Part shown: piece after piece, positions 1-11,639 of the stretch
Numbering within the stretch: the stretch's first letter is position 1
How the letters are laid out: each line of letters begins with the position of its first letter
DNA from: a virus
Reading direction: 5' to 3' (one strand)
UHGV virus genome: UHGV-0070899
DNA length: 11,639 bases
Position numbers and translations under genes: made by a program
The notes under the pieces: generated by a model
What the model saw: the letters and a program-made list of their open reading frames with translations, nothing else
What the model was told of the DNA's origin: nothing
The model's database searches: none

Positions 1-69
1 AGTATTTTTAGTCATCCTGTTTACCTCTTTCTCAGGAAGTTTAGTCTCCAGGATTCCCGGGGCGGTTCA
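1..69 (-). mobile_element. Partial IS3-family insertion sequence (IS629/IS1203-like): terminal inverted repeat plus first 5 codons of orfA; element body lies left of the window
   Basis: Reverse complement of 1-69 reads TGAACCGCCCCGGGAATCCTGGAGACTAAACTTCCTGAGAAAGAGGTAAACAGG-ATGACTAAAAATACT, which I recognise from memory as the IS629 left end and the MTKNT start of its OrfA. Nearly identical inverted copy at 11571-11639. Confidence 0.75.
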
Positions 70-70
70 G

Positions 71-160
71 TCTGGTAAGTGCCGTATTGCTGTGTGGTAT
101 TCAGCATGTGCTGTACGACCAGAGGCAATTGGTGTTGGTCTGCCTAACCAGACTGCGTGA
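71..160 (+). pseudogene. 3-prime fragment of the P22-type major coat protein gene (last 29 codons), truncated upstream by the IS
   Basis: Frame open from the IS boundary to TGA at 158-160 translates [29 protein letters not shown], closely matching the recalled P22 gp5 C-terminus (...[27 protein letters not shown]). A terminator follows. Confidence 0.75.
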
Positions 161-204: not shown

Positions 205-441
205 ATGACACACATGATCTTTCGTCATGGCGACATGAAGAAGTGGAAAGGCGTTGGCTACGACTTTGAAATCGTGAAAGCCGAAGAGCTTCAGGAATAT
301 CTGGATGCTGGTTGGTTTTCACATCCTGATGACCTTTTGAAGGATGTTGCAGAGCCAGAGCCAGAGCCAGAAGAAAAACAGCGTAAAAAGCCTGGTCGAA
401 AACCTAAGGCGGCAGCAGATGAACCTGACAACGAAGGGTGA
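205..441 (+). CDS. Small hypothetical protein (78 aa), acidic PEPEPE stretch and basic KKPGRKPK tail; occupies the slot between coat and gene 4
   Basis: ATG at 205 preceded by GGAG (195-198) with a 6-nt spacer. The longer GTG-157 version in the ORF track would run through the terminator, so it was trimmed. Overlaps the next gene's start by 23 nt. Confidence 0.5.
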
Positions 442-919
442 TTTAGTCCTTGCAGCATTACGTAAGCTCGGTGTTGCATCAAATGCCACGTTAACCGATG
501 TCGAACCGCAGTCTATGGAAGACGGGGTCAACGACCTTGAAATGATGATGGCTGAATGGCTTGGCGGTGATGTGTCACCTGGTATCAACGTTGGCTACAT
601 TTTTGCTGATGCAGATGTCGCTCCGGATCCGGGCGATGAGCACGGCTTATCAAATAACGCTATCAATGCCGTCATTTTCAACCTTGCCTGCCGCATTGCT
701 CCAGATTATGCGCTGGAAGCGTCAGCAAAACTTATAACCACTGCCAGATACGGGAAAGAGCGACTCGTCAAACTGTCTGCAATGGACAGAGCAAAAGCCG
801 CTAAATGTAAGTCCGGTTATCCAAACCGTATGCCTGTTGGTAGCGGTAATCAGTTGGCGAAGTGGAACGGTTGGAATTACTTCCACCGGAAGGAACCTTG
901 CGATAACGGGAGCGAATAA
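419..919 (+). CDS. P22 gp4-like tail accessory / head-completion protein (166 aa)
   Basis: From ATG 419 the protein reads [47 protein letters not shown]... and later [27 protein letters not shown], matching recalled P22 gp4 ([33 protein letters not shown]...[14 protein letters not shown]). Same length as P22 gp4. The ORF-track start at 344 is an upstream extension. Confidence 0.85.
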
Positions 920-2338
920 ATGCCGATTCAGCAACTTCCGCTTATGAAAGGTGTCGGCAAAGACTTTCGAAACGCCGACTATATCGACTATCTGCCAGTG
1001 AATATGTTGGCTACACCCAAAGAAATCCTGAACAGCAGCGGATATCTTCGCTCATTCCCGGGCATTGCCAAACGTTCTGATGTGAACGGCGTATCGCGAG
1101 GCGTCGAGTACAACATGGCACAGAATGCTGTTTATCGCGTGTGTGGTGGCAAACTGTATAAGGGCGAAAGTGAGGTCGGTGATGTTGCCGGAAGTGGTCG
1201 CGTATCAATGGCGCATGGTCGAACATCACAGGCGGTAGGCGTTAACGGGCAACTGGTCGAATACCGCTATGATGGCACGGTTAAAACCGTCTCAAACTGG
1301 CCTGCAGACAGCGGGTTTATGCAGTATGAGTTAGGTTCTGTTCGCGACATTACGCGTTTACGTGGGCGTTATGCGTGGTCAAAAGACGGCACTGATTCAT
1401 GGTTTATCACTGACCCTGAAGACGAATCGCATCCTGACCGCTACAGCGCACAATATCGAGCCGAGTCTCAGCCTGACGGCATCATCGGCATCGGAACATG
1501 GCGAGACTTCATCGTCTGCTTTGGTTCATCGACGATTGAATATTTCTCCCTGACGGGGGCAACCACCGTTGGTGCCGCTTTGTATGTCGCACAGCCATCG
1601 CTGATGGTGCAGAAAGGCATTGCCGGGACTTACTGCAAAACGCCGTTCGCCGATTCGTATGCGTTCATCAGCAATCCGGCAACAGGTGCGCCGTCTGTGT
1701 ATATCATCGGCTCCGGTCAGGTATCACCAATCGCCAGCGCGAGCATTGAGAAAATTCTTCGCTCCTACACTGCTGATGAACTGGCTGATGGTGTGATGGA
1801 ATCGCTGCGATTTGATGCGCATGAACTGCTGATTATCCACCTTCCGCGCCACGTCCTCGTGTACGACGCATCTTCAAGCGCCAATGGTCCGCAATGGTGT
1901 GTGTTGAAAACAGGCCTGTATGACGATGTGTACCGCGCTATCGACTTCATTTACGAAGGAAATCAGATAACGTGCGGCGATAAGCTGGAATCGGTTACCG
2001 GGAAATTGCAGTTCGATATCAGCAGCCAGTATGGGCTACAGCAAGAACACCTGCTGTTTACTCCGTTGTTCAAAGCGGATAACGCCAGATGCTTTGATCT
2101 GGAGGTGGAATCATCGACGGGTGTTGCTCAGTACGCTGACCGCCTGTTCCTCTCTGCAACCACTGACGGCATAAATTACGGGCGTGAGCAGATGATTGAG
2201 CAGAATGAACCGTTCGTTTACGACAAACGCGTTTTGTGGAAGCGAGTAGGGCGCATCAGGAAAAATGTTGGCTTCAAACTGCGCGTTATCACTAAGTCGC
2301 CTGTCACTCTGTCTGGCGCTCAGATAAGGATTGAGTAA
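920..2338 (+). CDS. P22 gp10-like tail accessory protein (472 aa)
   Basis: Same length as P22 gp10 and in the expected position after gp4. Stop of the upstream gene abuts the ATG (TAA-ATG); GGAG at about 909-912. Confidence 0.8.
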
Positions 2339-3186
2339 TGGCGGATTCGAATCTCAATGTGCCGGTAATCATTCAGGCTACACGGCTCGACACATCAGTC
2401 CTTCCACGCAATATCTTCTCGCAGTCGTATCTGCTTTACGTTATCGCACAGGGTACTGATGTTGGTAATGTGGCTAACAAGGCCAACGAGGCCGGACAGG
2501 GCGCTTATGACGCACAAGTCAGGAACGATGAGCAGGATGTGATTCTCGCTGACCATGAGCAGCGAATTTCTGCTGCGGAAGCAACGCTTGTTAATCATGA
2601 GGAGCGAATCAGCCAGGCAGAATCAACTCTTCAGGAACATGAAACACGAATAGCTCAGAATGAAAGCGATATTGCGTCGCTTGATACCAGAGTTCAGTCG
2701 CTGGAATCGCAGGTTTCAGACCATGAAACGCGCATCGATGCTCTGGAGTATGCCACTACTCGCAAGAAGTCAGAGGTTGTTTACTCTGGCGTATCTGTAA
2801 CCATCCCGACAGCGCCGACCAGCCTTGTTAGCCTGCTGAAAACGCTCACGCCATCATCCGGCACGTTGGCACCATTCTTCGACACCGTTAACAACAAGAT
2901 GGTTGTGTTCAACGAGAACAAAACCTTGTTCTTCAAGCTGTCGATCGTCGGGACGTGGCCCAGCGGAACCGCAAACAGGTCAATGCAGCTAACCTTTTCC
3001 GGATCTGTTCCTGACACACTGGTTAGCAGTCGTAATGCGGCGACAACAACCGACAACATCCTGTTAGCTACGTTCTTCAGCGTGGATAAAGACGGCTTTC
3101 TTGCCACAAATGGCAGTACGTTAACCATTCAGTCAAATGGGGCGGCGTTTACTGCCACAACCATCAAAATCATTGCGGAGCAGTGA
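2338..3186 (+). CDS. Tail needle (P22 gp26 family) with heptad coiled-coil core and extra C-terminal knob-type domain (282 aa)
   Basis: N-terminus [43 protein letters not shown] resembles the gp26 N-terminal domain. Residues 72-138 are regular heptads ([21 protein letters not shown] ...). The C-terminal ~140 aa is absent from P22 gp26 (233 aa), and the 282-aa length matches what I recall for the Sf6 needle. Start overlaps the gp10 stop (TAATG). Confidence 0.85.
2551..2751 (+). repeat. Degenerate in-frame tandem repeat (about 42-nt unit, 14 codons; HE-RI---E-TL-- x about 4.5) encoding the needle coiled coil
   Basis: Periodic protein motif [15 protein letters not shown] / [14 protein letters not shown] / [14 protein letters not shown] / [14 protein letters not shown] / [10 protein letters not shown] read from the translation. 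Confidence 0.5.
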
Positions 3187-3653
3187 TGGAAATAAAGCTC
3201 ATCGATAATCCGGTGAAGCTTGCAGAATTCCTCAACAACCCGGCAAACACGGGAAATATCGTAGACAGTGGAGATAGATACTACATCAAGCCTGATGCGG
3301 TATATCTCGGCATCTACGAAGGATTAGTGTTGGCTGGCGTTCATGAAGTGCGTAACTTCTGGCATAGCGTTGTTGAATGCCATGCGGTGTACGCCCCCGG
3401 ATTCCGTGGCGAATATGCACTGCAAGGGCATCGATTATTCTGCAAATGGCTTCTCGAAAACTCACCATTCCTTAACAGCATTACCATGGTTCCTGACACC
3501 ACGAAATACGGACGGTCAATTATCCGTTTGCTTGGCGCTACCCGTGTTGGTCACCTTGATGATGCGTACATGAGTAACGGAAAACCGGTTGGAATCACCC
3601 TCTATCAATTACCTCGTTCGAAATATGAGGAGCTAATAAATGTTAGTACTTAG
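3186..3653 (+). CDS. Virion protein in the P22 gene 14 position (about 155 aa); function inferred from synteny only
   Basis: ATG at 3186 overlaps the needle gene stop (TGATGG). Lies between needle and ejection-protein genes as in P22. I do not recognise the sequence itself. Confidence 0.55.
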   Translation: MEIKLIDNPVKLAEFLNNPANTGNIVDSGDRYYIKPDAVYLGIYEGLVLAGVHEVRNFWHSVVECHAVYAPGFRGEYALQGHRLFCKWLLENSPFLNSITMVPDTTKYGRSIIRLLGATRVGHLDDAYMSNGKPVGITLYQLPRSKYEELINVST

Positions 3654-4299
3654 CGAAAGCTTCAAGAATAAATTGCTTCCCATGAATGGGTATATGAAAG
3701 GCGGCAGCGACTCCGGCTCTAAAGCCCAGGCACGCGCAACTGAAAAGGGTATCGAATTGCAGCGCGAAATGTGGCAGACGAACATGCAGAACCTTGCACC
3801 GTTCACGCCACTCGCTCAGCAGTATGTATCAGAGTTGCAGAATCTTTCCTCTCTTCAGGGGCAAGGTCAGGCGCTTAACCAGTATTACAACTCCCAGCAG
3901 TATAAAGACCTTGCAGGGCAGGCGCGTTACCAGAGTCTGGCAGCAGCAGAGGCAACGGGTGGATTAGGCTCTACAGCAACAGGAAACCAGTTAGCAGCAA
4001 TCGCACCTACACTCGGTCAAAACTGGCTGTCAGGTCAGATGAACAACTACAACAATCTGGCAAACATTGGCCTTGGTGCTCTTACAGGTCAGGCAAACGC
4101 CGGGCAGAACTACGCTAACAACGTCAGCCAGTTGTATCAACAGCAGGCGGCGGCAGCGGCAGCAAATGCCAATAAACCGTCTGGTTTTCAGAGTGCTCTC
4201 GGTGGAGCTGCTGCAGGTGCTGCGATGGGTGCTGCAATCATGCCTGGTTGGGGTACAGCAATTGGTGCTGGCGTCGGTCTTCTTGGTTCACTTTTTTAA
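3640..4299 (+). CDS. Ejection (DNA-transfer) protein, P22 gp7-like (219 aa)
   Basis: Strong SD GAGGAG 7 nt upstream of ATG 3640. Size and position match P22 gp7. Gln/Asn-rich middle and Gly/Ala-rich hydrophobic C-terminus. Confidence 0.7.
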   Translation: MLVLSESFKNKLLPMNGYMKGGSDSGSKAQARATEKGIELQREMWQTNMQNLAPFTPLAQQYVSELQNLSSLQGQGQALNQYYNSQQYKDLAGQARYQSLAAAEATGGLGSTATGNQLAAIAPTLGQNWLSGQMNNYNNLANIGLGALTGQANAGQNYANNVSQLYQQQAAAAAANANKPSGFQSALGGAAAGAAMGAAIMPGWGTAIGAGVGLLGSLF

Positions 4300-4311
4300 T
4301 GGAGGTGTCTC

Positions 4312-5724
4312 TTGGCTACATGGCAACAGGCTGGTAATTCAGGCGCGCTTCTTGCCGGGTTGGGCGGCATGAACTCCAACGCTCCAAGAGCAAGTGATGC
4401 AGACGCCACACTTGCATACATTCGACAGAACAACGAAATGGAACGATCAGGTCGCAATAACATCGGCCTTCAGGCGTTACAGGGACTTGGTAGTGTCGCT
4501 CAAATATATCAAGCCGCAAAGCAACAGGAAGAGAATGCTGAATTCCAAAAAGAATATGCGGCAGCCATCCAGTCAGGTGATCGACAGCAGGTGCGAGATC
4601 TGATGACCAAATATCCTGGTCAATTAGAGAAGATTCAGTCTGGTATGAAGTGGGCAGACGAAGACCAGCGTGATGAAATTGGCAATCTAGCGGCAGGCGC
4701 TCGTCTTGCGGCATCGTCTCCAGAAGCAATGCAATCATGGCTGCAAAACAACGCCAAGGAACTGACTCGCGTCGGTGTTGACCCTAATAACGTTGCTCAG
4801 ATGTATCAGCAGAATCCTTCAGGGTTTGGTGAGTTTGTTGATCACCTTGGAATGGCTGCTCTTGGCCCAATTGATTACTTCAATGTTCAGGACAAGATGG
4901 CTGGTCGTGAGATTGACCGAGGTAGGCTGGCAGAGACAATTCGCAGCAATCAGGCTGGCGAAGCACTTCAGGCGAGAGGGCAAAACCTTTCCTATCAGTC
5001 AGCAATGACTGGGCACAATATCGCAGCACAACGCTTGGCTCTGGATCAGCAAGAGTTCGGGTTTAAGATGCAGCAAGCACAGGAAAAGGCTCAGCAGTTG
5101 ATTAGCGAAGCACCTAAGCTGTCAGTAAACATGGAAAAAGGCATTGAGACGGCTGTAAACAATGCCACAGCATCATCAAATTCAGCCAATTCTATGAGTG
5201 CGCTAGCTCAACAGTTCAGAGCAGAAAAACCAACGACAGGTTTGTTCGGTAACGCACAGAACATGTTCGCAAAACTTACCGGAAGCGATACGACATTGCG
5301 TGATTTGCGCATTCGCCAAAATGCCCTTGTTAACAGTCAGGTTCTTAAATTCCTACCTCCCGGCCCCGCAACGGATAAAGACGTTGAGATCGTTCGTCAG
5401 GGTGCACCAACTGACATGGATAACCCTGAGACGGTCGCAAGATGGCTTGATGCTATGGCAAACCTTGAGCGACGAAACGCGCAGTTTAATGAGTTTAAAG
5501 CCGAGTGGATGAGCGCGAATGGCAACCCTGGACAATCGCGTAATGGCGGTCAGATATTGGGGTTGGATGTTAAAAAAGGTGAATCATTGGGAAGTGCCGT
5601 TAAACGGTATATGTCAATGAATACTGACGCAGCGCCAGCGCAAGATTCGCCACCTTCAGGAGAACCACGGAATCAGGTTGGGTCATATACCTCAAAATCA
5701 GGCATTCAATTTACGGTGGAATGA
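4312..5724 (+). CDS. Ejection (DNA-transfer) protein, P22 gp20-like (470 aa), apparent TTG start
   Basis: Size matches P22 gp20 (about 471 aa) and order is conserved. GGAGG at 4301-4305 lies 6 nt before TTG 4312; there is no in-frame ATG until codon 20. Confidence 0.7.
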
Positions 5725-7664
5725 TGAAAGTAACTGCAAACGGTAAGACATTTACCTTCCCTGATGGTACGAGCACGGAAGATATTGGATCTGCAATTGA
5801 TGAGTATTTTGCTGGTCAGGCTGTTCAGCAGCAAACAGTTAATCAACCAACTCAAAACCAAGAGCAGCCTGTAGAACAGCAAGATGGATTTATGTCTGAC
5901 CTTGGCGAAGCAGTAAAAGAGACTGGTCGCGGACTGGTTCAGGCTGGCGTAAACGTGGCAAACATACCAGCATCAGTTGCCGATGCTGTAACAAGCGCGG
6001 CGGCATGGGCTGGCGGCAAACTCGGCATTGGCGATGGTACATATCAACCAGCGCCACGAGCAACAACGCAGGGATTAGAGCAGGTATTTGGACTTCAGCA
6101 AGGTGCTCTGACTCCACAAACGACAGAAGGTAGGGTGTTTGCGGAGGCATTGCCTTACCTGGCTACCGTTGGAGTTGGCGGCGCTTCAACGCAGGCTCCA
6201 ACACTTGCTGGTAGAATTACTCAAGGTGCAGCCCGTCTTCTGGCAGAAAACGCAGTCGGATCACTTGCCGCAAACAGTGAGAAAAATGATGCGGGAAAAC
6301 TGGCAACAGATATAGGTATTGGCATGCTAACAGGTGGTGCTGTTAATACTGTTGCAAAAGGGATTGGGCGTGGAATAACAGCCTTTAAAGGTGATATTGC
6401 GCCAGAAGTGGCGAAAAAAATTGCCACATCAGAATCGATGGGCGTGACACCAATGACATCTGATGTTATCACGCCGAAAAATGCTTTCACTCGCGGCCTT
6501 ACTCAGGATGCCGAGGGGGCTTTGCTCGGGACAGGCTCAAAGCGAGCGGAGCAATATGCAACGCGTAGTAAGTTGGTAAGTAATTATTTTGACCGTTTTG
6601 GTGAGTACAACCCGGATGATGTGGTGAAATCTCTGACCACCACGTTAAGGGGACGGAAGGATGCCGCTGGCGCTGTTATCAATGACGTCACCAATAAAAT
6701 GGGTAATGCCGCAGTTGATACCACAAATACCATGAATGCTCTGAATACAGCGATCGCAAGACAGGAACGGCTTGGGACGTCTGCCAATCAAAGCCTGCTT
6801 ACATCATTGCGTAACCTACGTGAAGAATTAGCAAACCCTGCAACTGATTTGGATGTTACGTTTGATCTCTTGCGTCAGCACAGAACAGCATTTAGATCCA
6901 ATGTTCAGGGAGATGCTATGGTCTTCCCCAACCAGGCAAAAGCAGCTACCAATATGGTAGAGAATGCAATGTCAAAAGATCTTCGTAACGCAGTTGCAAA
7001 AAACCTCGGTGCATCAGACGCAGCAAAATACCTTAAAGCAAACTCCGATTATGCAAACGTTTATAATAAGGTGCTTAATAAAAACATTGCTAACAAGCTC
7101 AACAAGGCAAGCAGTGAAGCCAGTCCTGAACTTATAAATACCGTTGTATTAAGCAGAAAACCATCTGACGTGAAACGAATCTGGAGCGCATTGGATGATA
7201 AAGGGAAAGATGCTATGCGTGCAGCTTACGTCAGCAAAATGGCGGAAAAGGCCGGTGACTCTCCAGCCAAGTTCATCACTGAAGTTAATAAGCTTAAATC
7301 TCAGTCAGGCGGTGAAATTTACAACACTATTTTTTCTGGAAAGCACATGAAAGAGCTTGATGCTCTTCATGAAGTTCTACAGCAAACAGCAAGGTCAGAC
7401 ACCGCAAATGTAGTAACTCAGACGGGGCAATCGCAAGCCAACAGGATAAGGACGATTGGCGCAACTGCGACTCTTGGCGTATCAATGGGGCTTGAGGCTG
7501 GTTTCGGTGCAATGATGCGCTTGTATGAGTCCAAAGCAGCAAGGAATGCTCTCTTACGTCTGGCAAACACCAAAGCAGGAACACCAGCCTATGAAAGAGC
7601 GCTAAATAATGCTGCAAATGCTATACGCCCTATACTTGCACCCCAAATTACAGCAGAACAATAG
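5721..7664 (+). CDS. Ejection (DNA-transfer) protein, P22 gp16-like (647 aa)
   Basis: N-terminus [33 protein letters not shown] matches my recollection of P22 gp16. Start overlaps the gp20 stop (ATGA). Last gene before the tailspike. Confidence 0.75.
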
Positions 7665-7715
7665 AATAAATAATTAACTAAGCACATAACTACTGACAGA
7701 TAACCAACGCAACGA

Positions 7716-7738
7716 CCCAGCTTCGGCTGGGGTTTTTT
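7716..7738 (+). terminator. Rho-independent terminator between gp16 and the tailspike gene
   Basis: Stem CCCAGC (7716-7721), loop TTCG, stem GCTGGG (7726-7731), then G plus six T (7733-7738). Confidence 0.6.
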
Positions 7739-7797
7739 ATGCCCAAAATTCACCGTGGCCATGCTGCGGCGATTCCTTGTATCTGGAGCAAATTAAA

Positions 7798-9759
7798 ATG
7801 ACAGATTCAATAAATGCCAATGTTGTAGTGAGCATGCCTTCTCAACTCTTCACTATGGCGCGTTCTTTTAAAGCCGTAGCCAATGGAAAAATTTATATCG
7901 GTAAAATTGACACTGACCCGGTAAATCCTGAAAACCAGATTCAGGTTTATGTGGAGAACGAAGACGGCTCTCACGTTCCTGTTTCGCAACCAATCATCAT
8001 TAACGCCGCTGGTTACCCTGTATATAACGGACAGATTGCCAAGTTCGTTACTGTGCAGGGTCATTCTATGGCTGTTTATGATGCATATAGTGCACAGCAG
8101 TTCTATTTTCCAAACGTGCTGAAGTATGACCCTGATCAGTTGCGACAAGAACTTGCTGGTCCTGATGGATATACTTTAATTCCGTCTATGCCAATACATA
8201 TTCAAATGCAAAAATGGCGTGACGATGGTGATATTAGGGGATGGGGATGTGTTTGCGATGGCGTTGCTGATGATTCAGACAACTTTCAGGCTGCAATTGT
8301 TTATTCAGAAGCGCACGATCGGCAATTATTTATTCCTGGGCCGATAAGAATCACGAAGAAAATCACGTTTACAAAGCCCCCTCAGTTACGTGGTTTCATG
8401 TACTCGCCGCCAGTAATTGGTAATTTTCAGGGCACCCCATACGCACACAAGGGATGCATAATCTATTCAGAGGTTGCATCTGGGTACTGCATAGAAATAA
8501 ACCCGCCAAGTAATAATCAGTACATACGCGGTCTGAACATTATTGACGTTCACGTACTGGCAAGTGGACCAGGTGTTTCAGGAGCTGGAGTATTAATAGC
8601 AAACTGCGGATGGGGTGGTTATGTTCGTGGACTTGTTGTTGAAGGATTCCATGGTGGTGGGCTGACTCTAAGTCAGTTGCAAGATACACTTTTTGACCAA
8701 TTGGAAATTCTAGATTGCGGAACAGATGGTGATGTATCTGGTGCCGGTAGATATGCTTTAACAATCAATAATGGCTCCAACATCCTGGCATTCAACAGAT
8801 GCAGGATGGAAGCTAACAACGCGCAAATGCATATTATTAATGGGGGCCATTTCGAGTTTAACAATTGCCATTTTGAGCAAGGTGATTATCCGAATTGTTC
8901 TCTTGGTCAAGAGTTTCAGAGAATAAATAGATATCCATCTATTGTATTGCAGCGGTGCAGCAATGTGAAATTTATAGGTGGTATGATTTTTGGTGCGACA
9001 CTTCAGCAACAGATGTCTGTTCATTCGGTAACTCCATCTCAGGCAGCATACAACTTTTCTATTGGAGGTGACTGCACGAACGTAATATTTGAAGGGACAA
9101 CCTTAGGATTTGGGTATGGGTCAGGAAAAATTATAGAGCACCATGGAAGTGGAAGTTTCAGTAATTGTAACTTTGAAAATATGTGCACAGAAGTAGCCCC
9201 AATTATACTCGACGGTAGTATTCTGTTTACAGGAAATAATGTTAGTTATACCGATAATTTAAGCAGCAATGTCTTTATAGGAATGGAAGCATACCTTGCA
9301 ACTATCAAAGGTAATTTCTTCGGTTGCATAAATAGTTCATCTGTAAATAAAACATCTGGAGCTTTGTTTACTGGCAGCAAATTAAGAAAGGCAAGGCTTG
9401 GTATCAATCAATATGTCATAAGCAAGATGAGCATGTTTACAGACGGAGGTTTGATATCCATAGACCAAAGCACTGAGGGATTCAGTCCCTTGTCAACAGG
9501 AACTCCAGCCATCAATGCATCAAGTCCTAATACGATTTACTTTTTTAGCTCTCCAGGAACCGTCACTGATTTTACAGGAATCATTGATAATCAGAGGCCT
9601 ACATTCTTAAATGCCAGCTCTGGAAACGTCACATTTCAAAATGGCCCCGCCCTTCATTGCAAGGGAGGAGTTAATGCGGTTGTCCCTCCTGGCGAGATGA
9701 TCACATTTATGTACAGTGGATTTTCTGGAGTCAAGCTAGAGATTAGCAGGACATTTTGA
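7798..9759 (+). CDS. Tailspike: P22-family head-binding domain (residues 1 to about 114) fused to a distinct beta-helix-like receptor-binding domain (653 aa)
   Basis: From ATG 7798: [60 protein letters not shown]...NVLKYDPDQ, matching the conserved P22 gp9 / Sf6 / HK620 N-terminal domain. The remainder is Gly/Asn/Ser-rich with repeated rung-like motifs ([18 protein letters not shown]). GGAG 9 nt upstream. The ORF-track start at 7777 is a TTG extension. Confidence 0.9.
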
Positions 9760-9767
9760 AATTATAT

Positions 9768-9784
9768 GCCCCTTGGATAGGGGC
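9768..9784. terminator. Hairpin between the convergent tailspike and GNAT genes, possibly a bidirectional terminator
   Basis: GCCCCT-TGGAT-AGGGGC, followed by AT-rich sequence on both sides. Sits between the tailspike stop (9757-9759) and the GNAT stop (9801-9803). Confidence 0.4.
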
Positions 9785-9800
9785 GATTTCATAGTATTTA

Positions 9801-10559
9801 CTAGATCTCTATCTCAATGCTATCAGGTAAATATTTTTTATATTTAAGCAGAGATAATTCGATTTCTTTCTTTGATATCTCAAATAAAATATCAAGTTCA
9901 GTTTCACCTGTTTTTTTTGCTCCAAACCTTTCATGGAATTTTATTACCGATGTATTACCCTTTCTTACATCAAAATGAGATTTTGCGAATCCAAGCTTAA
10001 GTGCATATGTATACAAAAGAAGTGCAGATTCTATTGCATAATGTGCAGGGGCGTTATCTACTATTACCCATGATCCCCAGCAAAAAGAATCTCCCACTTG
10101 GTCATACATCCTGATGGTGCCTAATCTTTCCCCTGAGTAGTTCTCAATAATAAAATATGCTTGACCTTTACTGCTTTCGTAATATTTCAACCAGTCACGT
10201 TGCTGCTCAACATCTGTTGAGGTTGAGCTGATAAATCTACCTTTCTTCTGATCGGTTCTTACTCTAACTATAAATTCAGCATCATCTTGGTTTGCGTTAC
10301 GCAAAACTATTGTTTTACCGACAATTTTTTTTGCTTTAGTGATTTGTGGGAATATATGGTAACCATTCATAGCTAATGCCTCCTGGACAACATCAGACTT
10401 GTCATTAAAAAGTATCTCTACGCATGAAATTGGTTTCGAGCTGTTGTGAACCACTGCAGCTCTAATAATTTCATCATGATTAAGAGATAGCAACTTAAGC
10501 TCATCTTGGCTAGTTTCTGGAGAGTTAGCCTTCCTGAAGTTATTGATAGTGTCGTTCAA
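9801..10559 (-). CDS. GNAT-family N-acetyltransferase (RimL/RimJ-like fold) with a 63-aa N-terminal extension; the alternative internal start at 10370 would give a 189-aa GNAT-only product
   Basis: C-terminal half carries GNAT hallmarks (TIVLRNANQDDAEF..., WGSWVIVDN...SHFDVRKGNTSVIKFHERFGAKKTGE). TTG at 10559 has GAGGA 6 nt upstream; in-frame ATG at 10370 has a perfect AGGAGG 8 nt upstream. Gene is strongly AT-rich compared with the phage core. Confidence 0.8.
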   Translation of the reverse strand: MNDTINNFRKANSPETSQDELKLLSLNHDEIIRAAVVHNSSKPISCVEILFNDKSDVVQEALAMNGYHIFPQITKAKKIVGKTIVLRNANQDDAEFIVRVRTDQKKGRFISSTSTDVEQQRDWLKYYESSKGQAYFIIENYSGERLGTIRMYDQVGDSFCWGSWVIVDNAPAHYAIESALLLYTYALKLGFAKSHFDVRKGNTSVIKFHERFGAKKTGETELDILFEISKKEIELSLLKYKKYLPDSIEIEI

Positions 10560-10990
10560 AATATATCCTCATGTATGTCTATGTTCTTTCTATAACTTTT
10601 CTCTAAAACACAAGTTCAGCATTGACAATAGCAGCAAGCATCTTGTTTTCCTTTCTATAAGCATAGCTACCTACATCAATGCTTCATTTATAGTATGAGA
10701 AAATAACTCACGTTCATAATCATTTTAATTATTCTCTCTCTTCAATATGCTAAGTTACCATCTCAAGCAAACCATTTTGGTTATAGGTAAACATTTTTGA
10801 ATAAAATTTGCGGAATTTCGGAGTTCAAATAGCGATTGTTTATGGTTCTGTCTTTAACGGCCTCTTTTAATTGATAAAGCATTCGCAGCCATAATGGTTC
10901 AATGTTCATAGTTACACACATAATCAAACTCACACCTAAAAGAGATATTACAGTATAATCAAAAAACCTAGATATACAAAGCTTTGCGTT
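10560..10990 (-). promoter_or_regulatory. AT-rich non-coding leader upstream of the GNAT gene, containing a 10-bp direct repeat (CTTTCTATAA at 10586-10595 and 10651-10660) and a 12-codon upstream ORF
   Basis: No convincing ORF on either strand. The direct repeat and the short SD-preceded ORF (10603-10641, minus strand) were read directly. No promoter hexamers could be assigned confidently. Confidence 0.3.
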
Positions 10991-11006
10991 CTTCGATAGT
11001 GGTTAA

Positions 11007-11030
11007 GGTGGATCACTCCACCTTTTCATC
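11007..11030 (+). terminator. Terminator-like hairpin (+ strand) of unknown cognate transcript
   Basis: GGTGGA-TCAC-TCCACC followed by TTTTCATC. The minus-strand version is not followed by a T-run. Confidence 0.3.
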
Positions 11031-11326
11031 AAGCCAGTCCGCCCACCACTGCATCATTTCTCTGCGCTTATCGTGGCAGATGCCTCACTATCACACGGTG
11101 ATGGTTCATTACTGGTTTGCATAATGGATAGAGAACTGAGGATAAAAGATATCCCAAAACCCAAAAATCTCATCTTTAGGATTTGCAGAAAGGGAGGCGT
11201 GAACAGATACCTGCGCATGAAGACGGAACTAGTCCAGATGTGATATTTGTGGTGATCACATACATCATCAACGATGCTCGTTATGGTGAGTTTGATGACT
11301 ACCCGCTGAAGTGAAAATTGTGTTGT

Positions 11327-11346
11327 GTACCAAATTGCGTACCAAA
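11327..11346. repeat. Two direct copies of GTACCAAA spaced 12 bp apart, candidate integrase arm-type or other protein-binding sites
   Basis: gtaccaaattgc-gtaccaaactaa read directly, about 55-75 bp from the proposed host/phage junction. Confidence 0.3.
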
Positions 11347-11386
11347 CTAAAATCACAAATCATGAAGCCCTTGTTCATGGCGGTTC

Positions 11387-11449
11387 TCAGGGGTGTTGCG
11401 CGTAATCGTGAAACAAAAAGGTAGATTGTTGCTTACCGTCATTCATCAT
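11387..11449 (-). pseudogene. sbcB: 5-prime fragment of exonuclease I gene: first 16 codons intact, then divergence and a stop after 4 more codons
   Basis: Minus-strand translation from 11449 is MMNDGKQQSTFLFHDY-AQHP*. The first 16 residues match the recalled E. coli SbcB N-terminus (MMNDGKQQSTFLFHDYETFGTHP...). The match ends at about 11401. Confidence 0.55.
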
Positions 11450-11570
11450 TAGGTTAAATCCGTTATTTCTGCTGTCTGCCAGAGTATCAAATATCACCGT
11501 GCTAATCAGCTTTAGCGCGACAATTTGACAGCGAGTGACAACAGATCATGTCAGATAAAAATGAGAGGGT

Positions 11571-11639
11571 TGAACCGCCCCGGAAATCCTGGAGACTAAA
11601 CTTCCTGAGAAAGAGGTAAACAGGATGACTAAAAATACT
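11571..11639 (+). mobile_element. Partial IS3-family insertion sequence (IS629/IS1203-like): terminal inverted repeat plus first 5 codons of orfA (ATG at 11625); element body lies right of the window
   Basis: TGAACCGCCCCGGAAATCCTGGAGACTAAACTTCCTGAGAAAGAGGTAAACAGG-ATGACTAAAAATACT. Differs from the left copy at one base (GGAAAT here, GGGAAT in the left copy). Confidence 0.75.

Follow-up and report, generated by a model that had tools for sequence, protein, structure and literature searches.

Coat gene stub beside IS629 as a probable deletion endpoint in a decayed P22/Sf6-like prophage at the sbcB site of Escherichia coli

The 11,639-nucleotide stretch of the viral genome UHGV-0070899 analysed here (referred to below as the window) corresponds to a prophage's right arm, which runs from codon 402 of the coat gene to attR and is followed by chromosomal DNA. 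With a probability of roughly 0.88, we consider that it derives from a dead P22/Sf6-like prophage at an Sf101-type sbcB site, and that the coat gene stub at its left end is the endpoint of a deletion or rearrangement. A preliminary description, made from the window alone, had placed the IS at this end inside the coat gene, on the condition that it was a true insertion and not a rearrangement scar, and had proposed that the downstream module may be retained for something other than phage production. The case is one of ordinary prophage decay.

The features of the window are listed in Table 1. The late block gp4-gp10-gp26-gp14-gp7-gp20-gp16-tailspike was collinear, with the Pfam matches in this order, and full length compared with intact relatives. 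Exact copies of the 78-aa protein were present in 986 collection blocks. A (GAGCCA)n repeat encoding a Pro-Glu run lies in this ORF at approximately positions 331–360 (about 349), and the sister strains L017, L046, and L051 have gained one or two units (6 or 12 bp) in frame. The gp10 gene showed 99.86% DNA identity to intact copies, and its exact protein was found in 13,369 collection blocks, many of which are apparently intact Sf6-like prophages. The exact gp7 protein was found in 70 blocks, and all of those read belonged to this remnant lineage. Shorter calls in some assemblies (189 aa for the GNAT protein and 590 aa for gp16) reflect differences between gene callers and not mutations.

Table 1. 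Features identified in the window, from the left IS629 end to the right IS629 end
Feature	Position	Strand	Basis and remarks
IS629 (IS3 family) IRL end	1–69	-	Reverse complement of IRL; only 69 bp within the window
Coat (gp5) 3' stub	70–160	+	Last base of codon 402, codons 403–431, and stop; junction variant J2
Terminator-like hairpin and T-run	166–195 (hairpin 166–187)	+	Directly after the coat stop; 9-bp stem, then TTTATCTGGA; -18 kcal/mol, z -2.7
78-aa ORF, function unknown	205–441	+	Between coat and gp4, conserved; 100% DNA identity to intact prophages
gp4 tail accessory / head-tail adaptor, 166 aa, full length	419–919	+	PF11650, 1.3e-58
gp10 head-closure ("packaged DNA stabilization protein"), 472 aa, full length	920–2338	+	PF11134
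gp26-type tail needle, Sf6-type knob, 282 aa, full length	2338–3186	+	PF16532
gp14 homologue (DUF2824), 155 aa, full length	3186–3653	+	Pfam match; alignment with intact relatives
gp7 ejection protein, 219 aa	3640–4299	+	PF25688
gp20 ejection protein, 470 aa, full length	4312–5724	+	PF16928
gp16 ejection protein, 647 aa, full length	5721–7664	+	Precomputed PF26808; end to end with homologues
Terminator-like hairpin, gp16-tailspike gap	7716–7741	+	Hairpin scan
Tailspike, P22-type head-binding domain, 653 aa	7798–9759	+	PF09008
GNAT acetyltransferase accessory gene (moron), 252 aa, GNAT domain residues 84–215	9801–10559	-	PF13302, 1.2e-10
IntS-type integrase gene, fossil 3' end (...HDKRREMMQWWADWLDEKVE, stop)	11013–11075	-	63 nt, read by eye
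attR core CGTAATCGTGAAA, prophage right end	11401–11413	+	13-bp core
Chromosome: displaced native sbcB 5' end (start 11449, MMNDGKQQSTFLFHDY) and part of the sbcB-dacD spacer	11401–11570	-	98.2% to K-12; ORF translation
GGT, target-site duplication (3 bp) of the right-hand IS629, one copy	11568–11570	.	Comparison with L023/L025
Second IS629 IRL end, inverted relative to the first, 157 bp outside attR in chromosomal DNA	11571–11639	+	Sequence match

The terminal inverted repeat of IS629 (TGAACCGCCCCGG...) was present at the left end, with orfA beginning approximately 55 nt inside. The orfA start codon is located at positions 15–13 and reads into MTKNT, and the transposase gene points leftward, away from the phage genes. 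In relatives, the full-length element is 1309–1310 bp, and the 1310-bp copy was 99.5% identical to an annotated IS629. The boundary between the IS and the coat gene was mapped between positions 69 and 70, past the second base of Leu402. Translation of positions 71–160 gave 29 codons and a stop, identical to the C-terminal 29 residues of coat (431 aa) in the intact ETEC1721 prophage. Intact P22-type coat genes from several E. coli prophages matched positions 70–160 at 91 of 91 nucleotides. When the 29-aa stub alone was compared with Pfam, it matched P22_CoatProtein (PF11651) at profile positions 398–422 of 423 (E 2.1e-5), with a score of 24 bits against a cut-off of 24 bits. Megablast matches to genes annotated as "P22 phage major capsid protein" began at positions 67–70. 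The coat C-terminus reported at the IS boundary on the plus strand in the preliminary description was thus borne out, and its 29-residue match was reproduced. Only 7% of the coat gene remains in the window. The junction itself was found in at least six independent assemblies and is therefore not an assembly artefact. It was absent from the RefSeq complete E. coli genomes, and an exact search for it in one-genome-per-species contigs gave no match, which by itself is not telling.

The window contains only 69 bp of each IS and has the appearance of an IS-bounded short-read contig, and the assemblies closest to it (99.98–99.99%), among them the metagenome scaffold L011, are contigs of the same kind. 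The far side of the left IS was accordingly read from relatives of the remnant lineage, which were located by exact-protein look-ups. A complete P22-like prophage in E. coli ETEC1721 (NZ_CP122868.1, 1,837,716–1,876,006), which occupies the same sbcB-dacD site in the same orientation, served as the intact reference. Its left half comprises sbcB, int, an AlpA-type regulator, early-left genes, repressor/cro, replication genes, nin genes, Q, and lysis genes; its right half comprises terminase, portal, scaffold, coat (431 aa), the 78-aa ORF, gp4 through gp16, tailspike, attR, and dacD.

Two forms of the remnant locus were contiguous from sbcB to dacD. In E. coli TZ118, a strain from food animals with a complete chromosome (CP095446), the stub-adjacent IS629 is full length and on its opposite side adjoins int at codon 268/269, beyond which lie attL and sbcB. 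In L045, L046, and L051, the stub is preceded by nt 442-1 of IS629, by an IS66-family element that carries one of the IS110 family, and then by int codons 375-1 and sbcB; a 149-kb contig of this form was 99.8% identical to the window. The side of the 11.5-kb segment that carries the block of IS66-family and IS110-family elements varies among strains. In the L045/L046/L051 form, reference coordinates 6853–31519 (numbering of L034; 24,667 bp) are missing. The missing DNA of approximately 24.7 kb comprises xis, immunity, replication, Q, lysis, terminase, portal, and scaffold genes and 93% of the coat gene. Neither TZ118 nor L045/L046/L051 has the full gene set for virions and lysogeny (terminase, portal, scaffold, whole coat, lysis, Q, repressor, and int/xis) in the interval from sbcB to dacD. 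The preliminary view that the element cannot make capsids holds. The far side in the source genome is presumably the same as in these relatives of 99.8–99.98% identity.

In a rival explanation, which follows the earlier reading of a true insertion, IS629 simply inserted in the coat gene of an otherwise complete prophage, and the 5' part of the coat gene would lie just beyond the left IS. An intact IS terminus does adjoin coat sequence precisely, and a 442-bp IS629 fragment in L045 suggests that a whole IS629 was formerly in the coat gene; moreover, the window alone ends inside the IS, and the far side is beyond its reach. However, in the closest relatives the far side consisted of the integrase gene and sbcB, or of the IS66-family element and the integrase gene, and coat 5' sequence beyond the IS was found in none of the related assemblies that span it. 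The preliminary description had itself named this outcome as a refutation. All 24 of the contigs read that carry the window's exact gp16 started at an IS or at the coat stub, and none had an upstream coat gene. The sbcB-dacD region is contiguous without head, lysis, and early genes, and the IS between int and coat lacks a target-site duplication. In addition, a reciprocal junction between the coat 5' part and an IS629 end was not found in two public collections of genome and metagenome contigs, although this is not telling alone. A simple insertion can therefore hardly be credited, and the stub is better regarded as a deletion or rearrangement endpoint.

The integration site was defined from both prophage ends. 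E. coli K-12 matched the window only over positions 11401–11570, the homology starting exactly at the att core. The core CGTAATCGTGAAA occurs at both ends of the prophage within the 5' end of sbcB, attL being present in TZ118 and ETEC1721, and it is the core published for Sf101 and phage 2851 (PMC4159516). An initial assignment of positions 10977–11570 to the core chromosome was discarded, because K-12 covers only 11401–11570 and the remainder (10977–11400) is att-proximal phage DNA common to the prophages at this site. Likewise, int had been placed to the right of the GNAT gene on the basis of an integrase-like C-terminus at 11013–11075, which is only a 63-nt fossil. The Sf101-type tyrosine integrase gene adjoins attL, outside the window, and is split or truncated in this lineage. 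The integrase and AlpA region showed 99.0% DNA identity to Sf101, and the integrase region of the ETEC1721 prophage was 99% identical to those of Sf101, HK140, mEp234, and some Stx phages.

On integration, the first 16 or so codons of sbcB were replaced, and the native start MMNDGKQQSTFLFHDY was stranded at attR (positions 11401–11449, minus strand). The new 5' end of sbcB supplied by the phage at attL reads, by eye, MTDTDKQPTFLFHDY (L009 7529–7574). Judging from this reading frame, sbcB probably stays functional after integration. Repeats of the motif GTACCAAA flank the att core, near attR (positions 11320–11350) and, in relatives, between attL and int (L009 7690–7750); these repeats may be candidate arm-type binding sites of the integrase.

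The IS629 insertions at this locus generated target-site duplications of 3 bp, namely GGT for the right-hand copy and TAA for the insertion in int. The right-hand IS629 is a clean insertion in the sbcB-dacD spacer: the uninterrupted sequence is GAGAGGGTAGTCAC, as compared with ...GGT, IS629, and GGT AGTCAC in L023 and L025. In contrast, the IS that bridges int and coat has TAA next to int but GTC next to coat, without a target-site duplication, and therefore did not arise by simple insertion. The TAA pair of TZ118 is divided between two IS629 copies: one joins the N-terminal part of int to the coat stub, and the other joins the inverted C-terminal part of int to the dacD side. The latter, third IS629 copy of TZ118 is a hybrid in which one sequence variant gives way to another at a crossover within nt 808–881; the copies compared were L009 8562–9870, 14278–14719, and 19028–20237 and L025 2931–4239. 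The split TAA pair and the hybrid copy together indicate that IS629 copies at the locus have recombined.

Such recombination bears on another explanation of the junction, in which an inversion between inverted IS629 copies produced it and the 5' half of the coat gene survives elsewhere at the locus or in the genome. The two IS629 ends of the window are indeed inverted, IS-by-IS recombination is demonstrated by the split TAA duplication and the hybrid IS, and an alternative join is present in L011. Against this, all IS629 flanks could be assigned in TZ118 and L045, where the locus is fully resolved: they are intN/intC, the sbcB-dacD spacer on either side of its insertion, the stub of the coat gene, and the IS66-family element, and none was the coat 5' part. 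The string just upstream of the junction, ATCAACACTCTG, was absent from TZ118-type loci, and dacD lies beyond the third IS629. An inversion between an IS629 in int and an IS629 in coat, which predicts the coat 5' part past the third IS629, was rejected since the flank there is dacD. We regard survival of the other coat half through an inversion as extremely unlikely. The L011 join was not accepted as proof of an inversion isomer: in this metagenome scaffold (11522–12831) the right IS629 is joined to the N-terminal part of int and sbcB, and the IS is a patchwork of both variants. It is distrusted and is probably a collapsed repeat, a true inversion isomer of the inverted IS629 copies being the alternative.

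Among assemblies that differ from the window by 0.01–0.4%, the joint between IS629 and the coat gene occurred in three nested forms (compared at window 67–76, L045 6416–6440, and L009 9865–9880). In J1, ...GGTTCA is followed by GATATCAACACTCTGTCTGGTAAG and 34 coat codons are kept; in J2, the form of the window, ...GGTTCA is followed by GTCTGGTAAG and 29 coat codons are kept; and in J3, ...GGTTCA is followed by GGTAAG, 4 bp shorter than J2. All three have an intact IS terminus; at the stub side, J2 and J3 share one IS sequence variant, and J1 carries the other. The three forms look like a stepwise erosion of the DNA beside a retained IS end. The figure of 29 codons, given previously as the distance of the insertion from the coat stop, is one stage of erosion and not an original insertion site. 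Two routes could have led to the nested junctions. A new copy could have inserted beside the resident IS end, followed by recombination between the direct copies; alternatively, one IS end could have undergone strand transfer into nearby flanking DNA, as has been proposed for IS629 deletions. A substitution at position 7986 is at odds with a simple tree from J1 to J2 to J3. This position is G in the window, in L011, and in the outgroup L026, and A in all other lineage members, which include all three junction types. It is a homoplasy, possibly due to gene conversion from another P22-like head-binding domain or to a recurrent transition.

From these junctions we infer a likely course of events. 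A P22/Sf6-like prophage integrated at the Sf101-type att site at the 5' end of E. coli sbcB, and one end of an IS629 would then have come to lie at the coat 3' end. In the L045 form, 442 bp of IS629 are caught between the stub and the IS66-family element, which suggests that a whole IS629 was once located there; the IS66-family element would have truncated this coat-side copy at nt 442, together with the upstream prophage. Further IS629 insertions would have occurred in int and in the sbcB-dacD spacer, and the IS629 copies would have recombined. IS-associated events would have removed approximately 24.7 kb, including most of the coat gene and the scaffold, portal, terminase, lysis, Q, replication, immunity, and xis genes. 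The tail, ejection, and tailspike genes are still intact owing to the youth of the remnant; they lack any visible route to late-operon expression, and sister strains are losing them piecemeal.

All ten downstream ORFs (10/10) were full length and aligned end to end with homologues in apparently intact prophages, and the remnant ORFs were 97–100% identical to those of such prophages. The tail, ejection, tailspike, and GNAT ORFs are hence as intact as originally described. Their retention for a use other than phage production was without support. Lineage members differed from the window by 0.01–0.4%, that is, by a handful of substitutions and small indels at junctions and repeats over 11.6 kb, and since the divergence is only of this order, intact ORFs are the neutral expectation. 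Within the lineage, 11 nonsynonymous changes (one of them nonsense) and 7 synonymous changes were found in the tail genes, compared with a neutral fraction of 0.77 (p = 0.16), in a test that is based on 18 changes and has little power. Independent lesions were also found in sister lineages: a tailspike nonsense mutation (Q301*) in L017 and L046, an IS3 insertion in gp16 in L051, and an IS1-bounded deletion of the region corresponding to window 595–8450 in TZ118. In E. coli 14EC017 and three other assemblies, IS1 connects a truncated int with a tailspike reduced to its final 192 aa. The GNAT gene was present in all remnant forms seen, even the most reduced.

The Q gene and the late-promoter region fall in the deleted segment, and no sigma-70-like site was detected on the plus strand before position 4913 in a consensus-match scan of the window. 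The IS629 transposase gene points away from the phage genes, and the coat stop is followed by the terminator-like hairpin. On these grounds, and with the promoter part derived from the consensus scan only, we infer that the late operon (gp4 to tailspike) is unlikely to be expressed. A P22-type podovirus tail assembles on the portal vertex of a filled head.

These observations bear on the idea that the tail, ejection, and tailspike cassette together with the GNAT gene has been kept by selection for a non-virion use, for which a tailspike depolymerase, a recombination reservoir for incoming P22-like phages, and surface modification are possible candidates. All 10 ORFs are intact, the cassette occurs in dozens of assemblies (28–70 blocks), the ratio of 11 to 7 is nominally below neutral, and the GNAT gene survives in the most reduced remnants. 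On the other hand, the divergence is too low for intactness to be informative, and the ratio does not differ significantly from neutrality. Nonsense, IS, and deletion lesions affect exactly these genes in several sister lineages. Furthermore, the late-promoter region and Q are in the deleted segment, a terminator-like hairpin lies upstream, and a P22-type tail needs a portal in a filled head, for which the locus has no portal gene. Selection for such a use is accordingly very unlikely, although selection acting on the GNAT gene alone is possible. Very improbable as well is that the intact cassette and the GNAT gene, lying between inverted IS629 copies, are maintained, or flipped or mobilised as a unit, for a function at the level of the host or the phage. 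If this were true, the tailspike/GNAT pair might alter or read a surface glycan, or the cassette might act as a reservoir that re-arms incoming P22-like phages. Ordinary decay of a young remnant is the reading that we retain.

The tailspike and GNAT genes (window 7798–10559) form a pair that was 99% identical in the apparently intact argW-integrated prophages L022, L026, and L030, and the tailspike gene was 99.2% identical to that of L022 and L026. In 50,697 deposited phage records, no match was found for the receptor-binding part of the tailspike, only the first 14% of the query (the head-binding domain) being matched, and none was found for the GNAT gene. The exact GNAT protein was present in 208 collection blocks. 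Its likeness to PseH was weak (27.7 bits, the cut-off being 93), and PADLOC gave no hit; going by the PseH likeness, the enzyme may act on a nucleotide-sugar. Homology to the argW-type prophages L022 and L026 ends at position 11073, at the integrase fossil (11013–11075), which appears to mark a mosaic joint with argW-integrating relatives. Because the homology ends at the fossil, the tailspike-GNAT module seems to have been imported from an argW-integrating relative.

Among described systems, the closest counterpart of this locus is the serotype-converting, Sf6-like phage Sf101, which uses sbcB as its integration site (Jakhetia et al. 2014, PMC4159516). In S. flexneri, the region adjacent to sbcB is highly variable, with IS elements and an Sf101-like int in 8 of 10 genomes, and the authors considered IS disruption of the prophage to be the cause of this variability (PMC4159516). 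The present remnant shares with Sf101 the 13-bp att core, the site at the sbcB 5' end, an integrase and AlpA-type regulator at 99%, an Sf6-like late-gene architecture, and an acetyltransferase accessory gene between the tailspike gene and att. It differs in its host, E. coli (TZ118 and 14EC017), in its accessory protein, which is a soluble GNAT (PF13302) and not a membrane acyltransferase such as OacB of Sf101, and in its tailspike, the receptor-binding part of which lacks a match in deposited phages. The set of lesions found here, which involves IS629, IS66-family, IS110-family, and IS1 elements, was not found in the two papers that were compared.

The virion block has the same gene order and the same families as that of Sf6, HK620, and P22 (5-4-10-26-14-7-20-16-9), with a needle knob of the Sf6 type. 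Unlike in these phages, coat is reduced to its last 29 codons, the locus lacks the genes for portal, scaffold, and terminase, and no immI region (mnt/arc/ant) lies between gp16 and the tailspike gene. The remnant resembles cryptic prophages of E. coli K-12 (e.g. CP4-44, which is annotated nearby) in being non-inducible, fixed in the chromosome, and deprived of most modules, but it is much younger, as its ORFs are 97–100% identical to those of apparently intact prophages. As compared with a tailocin-like domesticated tail device, the locus has no lysis or regulatory genes, no upstream promoter-like site, and no portal gene.

In E. coli O157, IS629 is well documented to inactivate genes and to cause deletions, and the passages on IS629 in two reports (PMC9943667; bioRxiv 10.1101/2023.06.07.543989, citing Kusumoto 2011) attribute these deletions to strand transfer from one IS end to a nearby non-end target. 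The element at the present locus is the same (99.5% identical). In those passages, the deletions accompany IS excision, whereas here the IS end was kept at each step. In addition, unlike the IS629 deletions of O157, the large deletion of the L045 form is bounded by an IS66-family element and not by IS629 alone.

Truncation mediated by IS elements is a standard route to cryptic prophages. IS-disrupted Sf101-like remnants at sbcB are already known in Shigella, and the present case is of little import for biology at large. It does call for caution on two points: the presence of an IS end beside a gene fragment is no proof that the rest of the gene is found on the far side, and intact ORFs at a lineage divergence of 0.01–0.4% say nothing about selection. 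For those who study IS elements, the nested junctions between IS629 and the coat gene and the traceable hybrid IS copies provide a small and clean record of what appears to be stepwise IS-driven erosion of a prophage.
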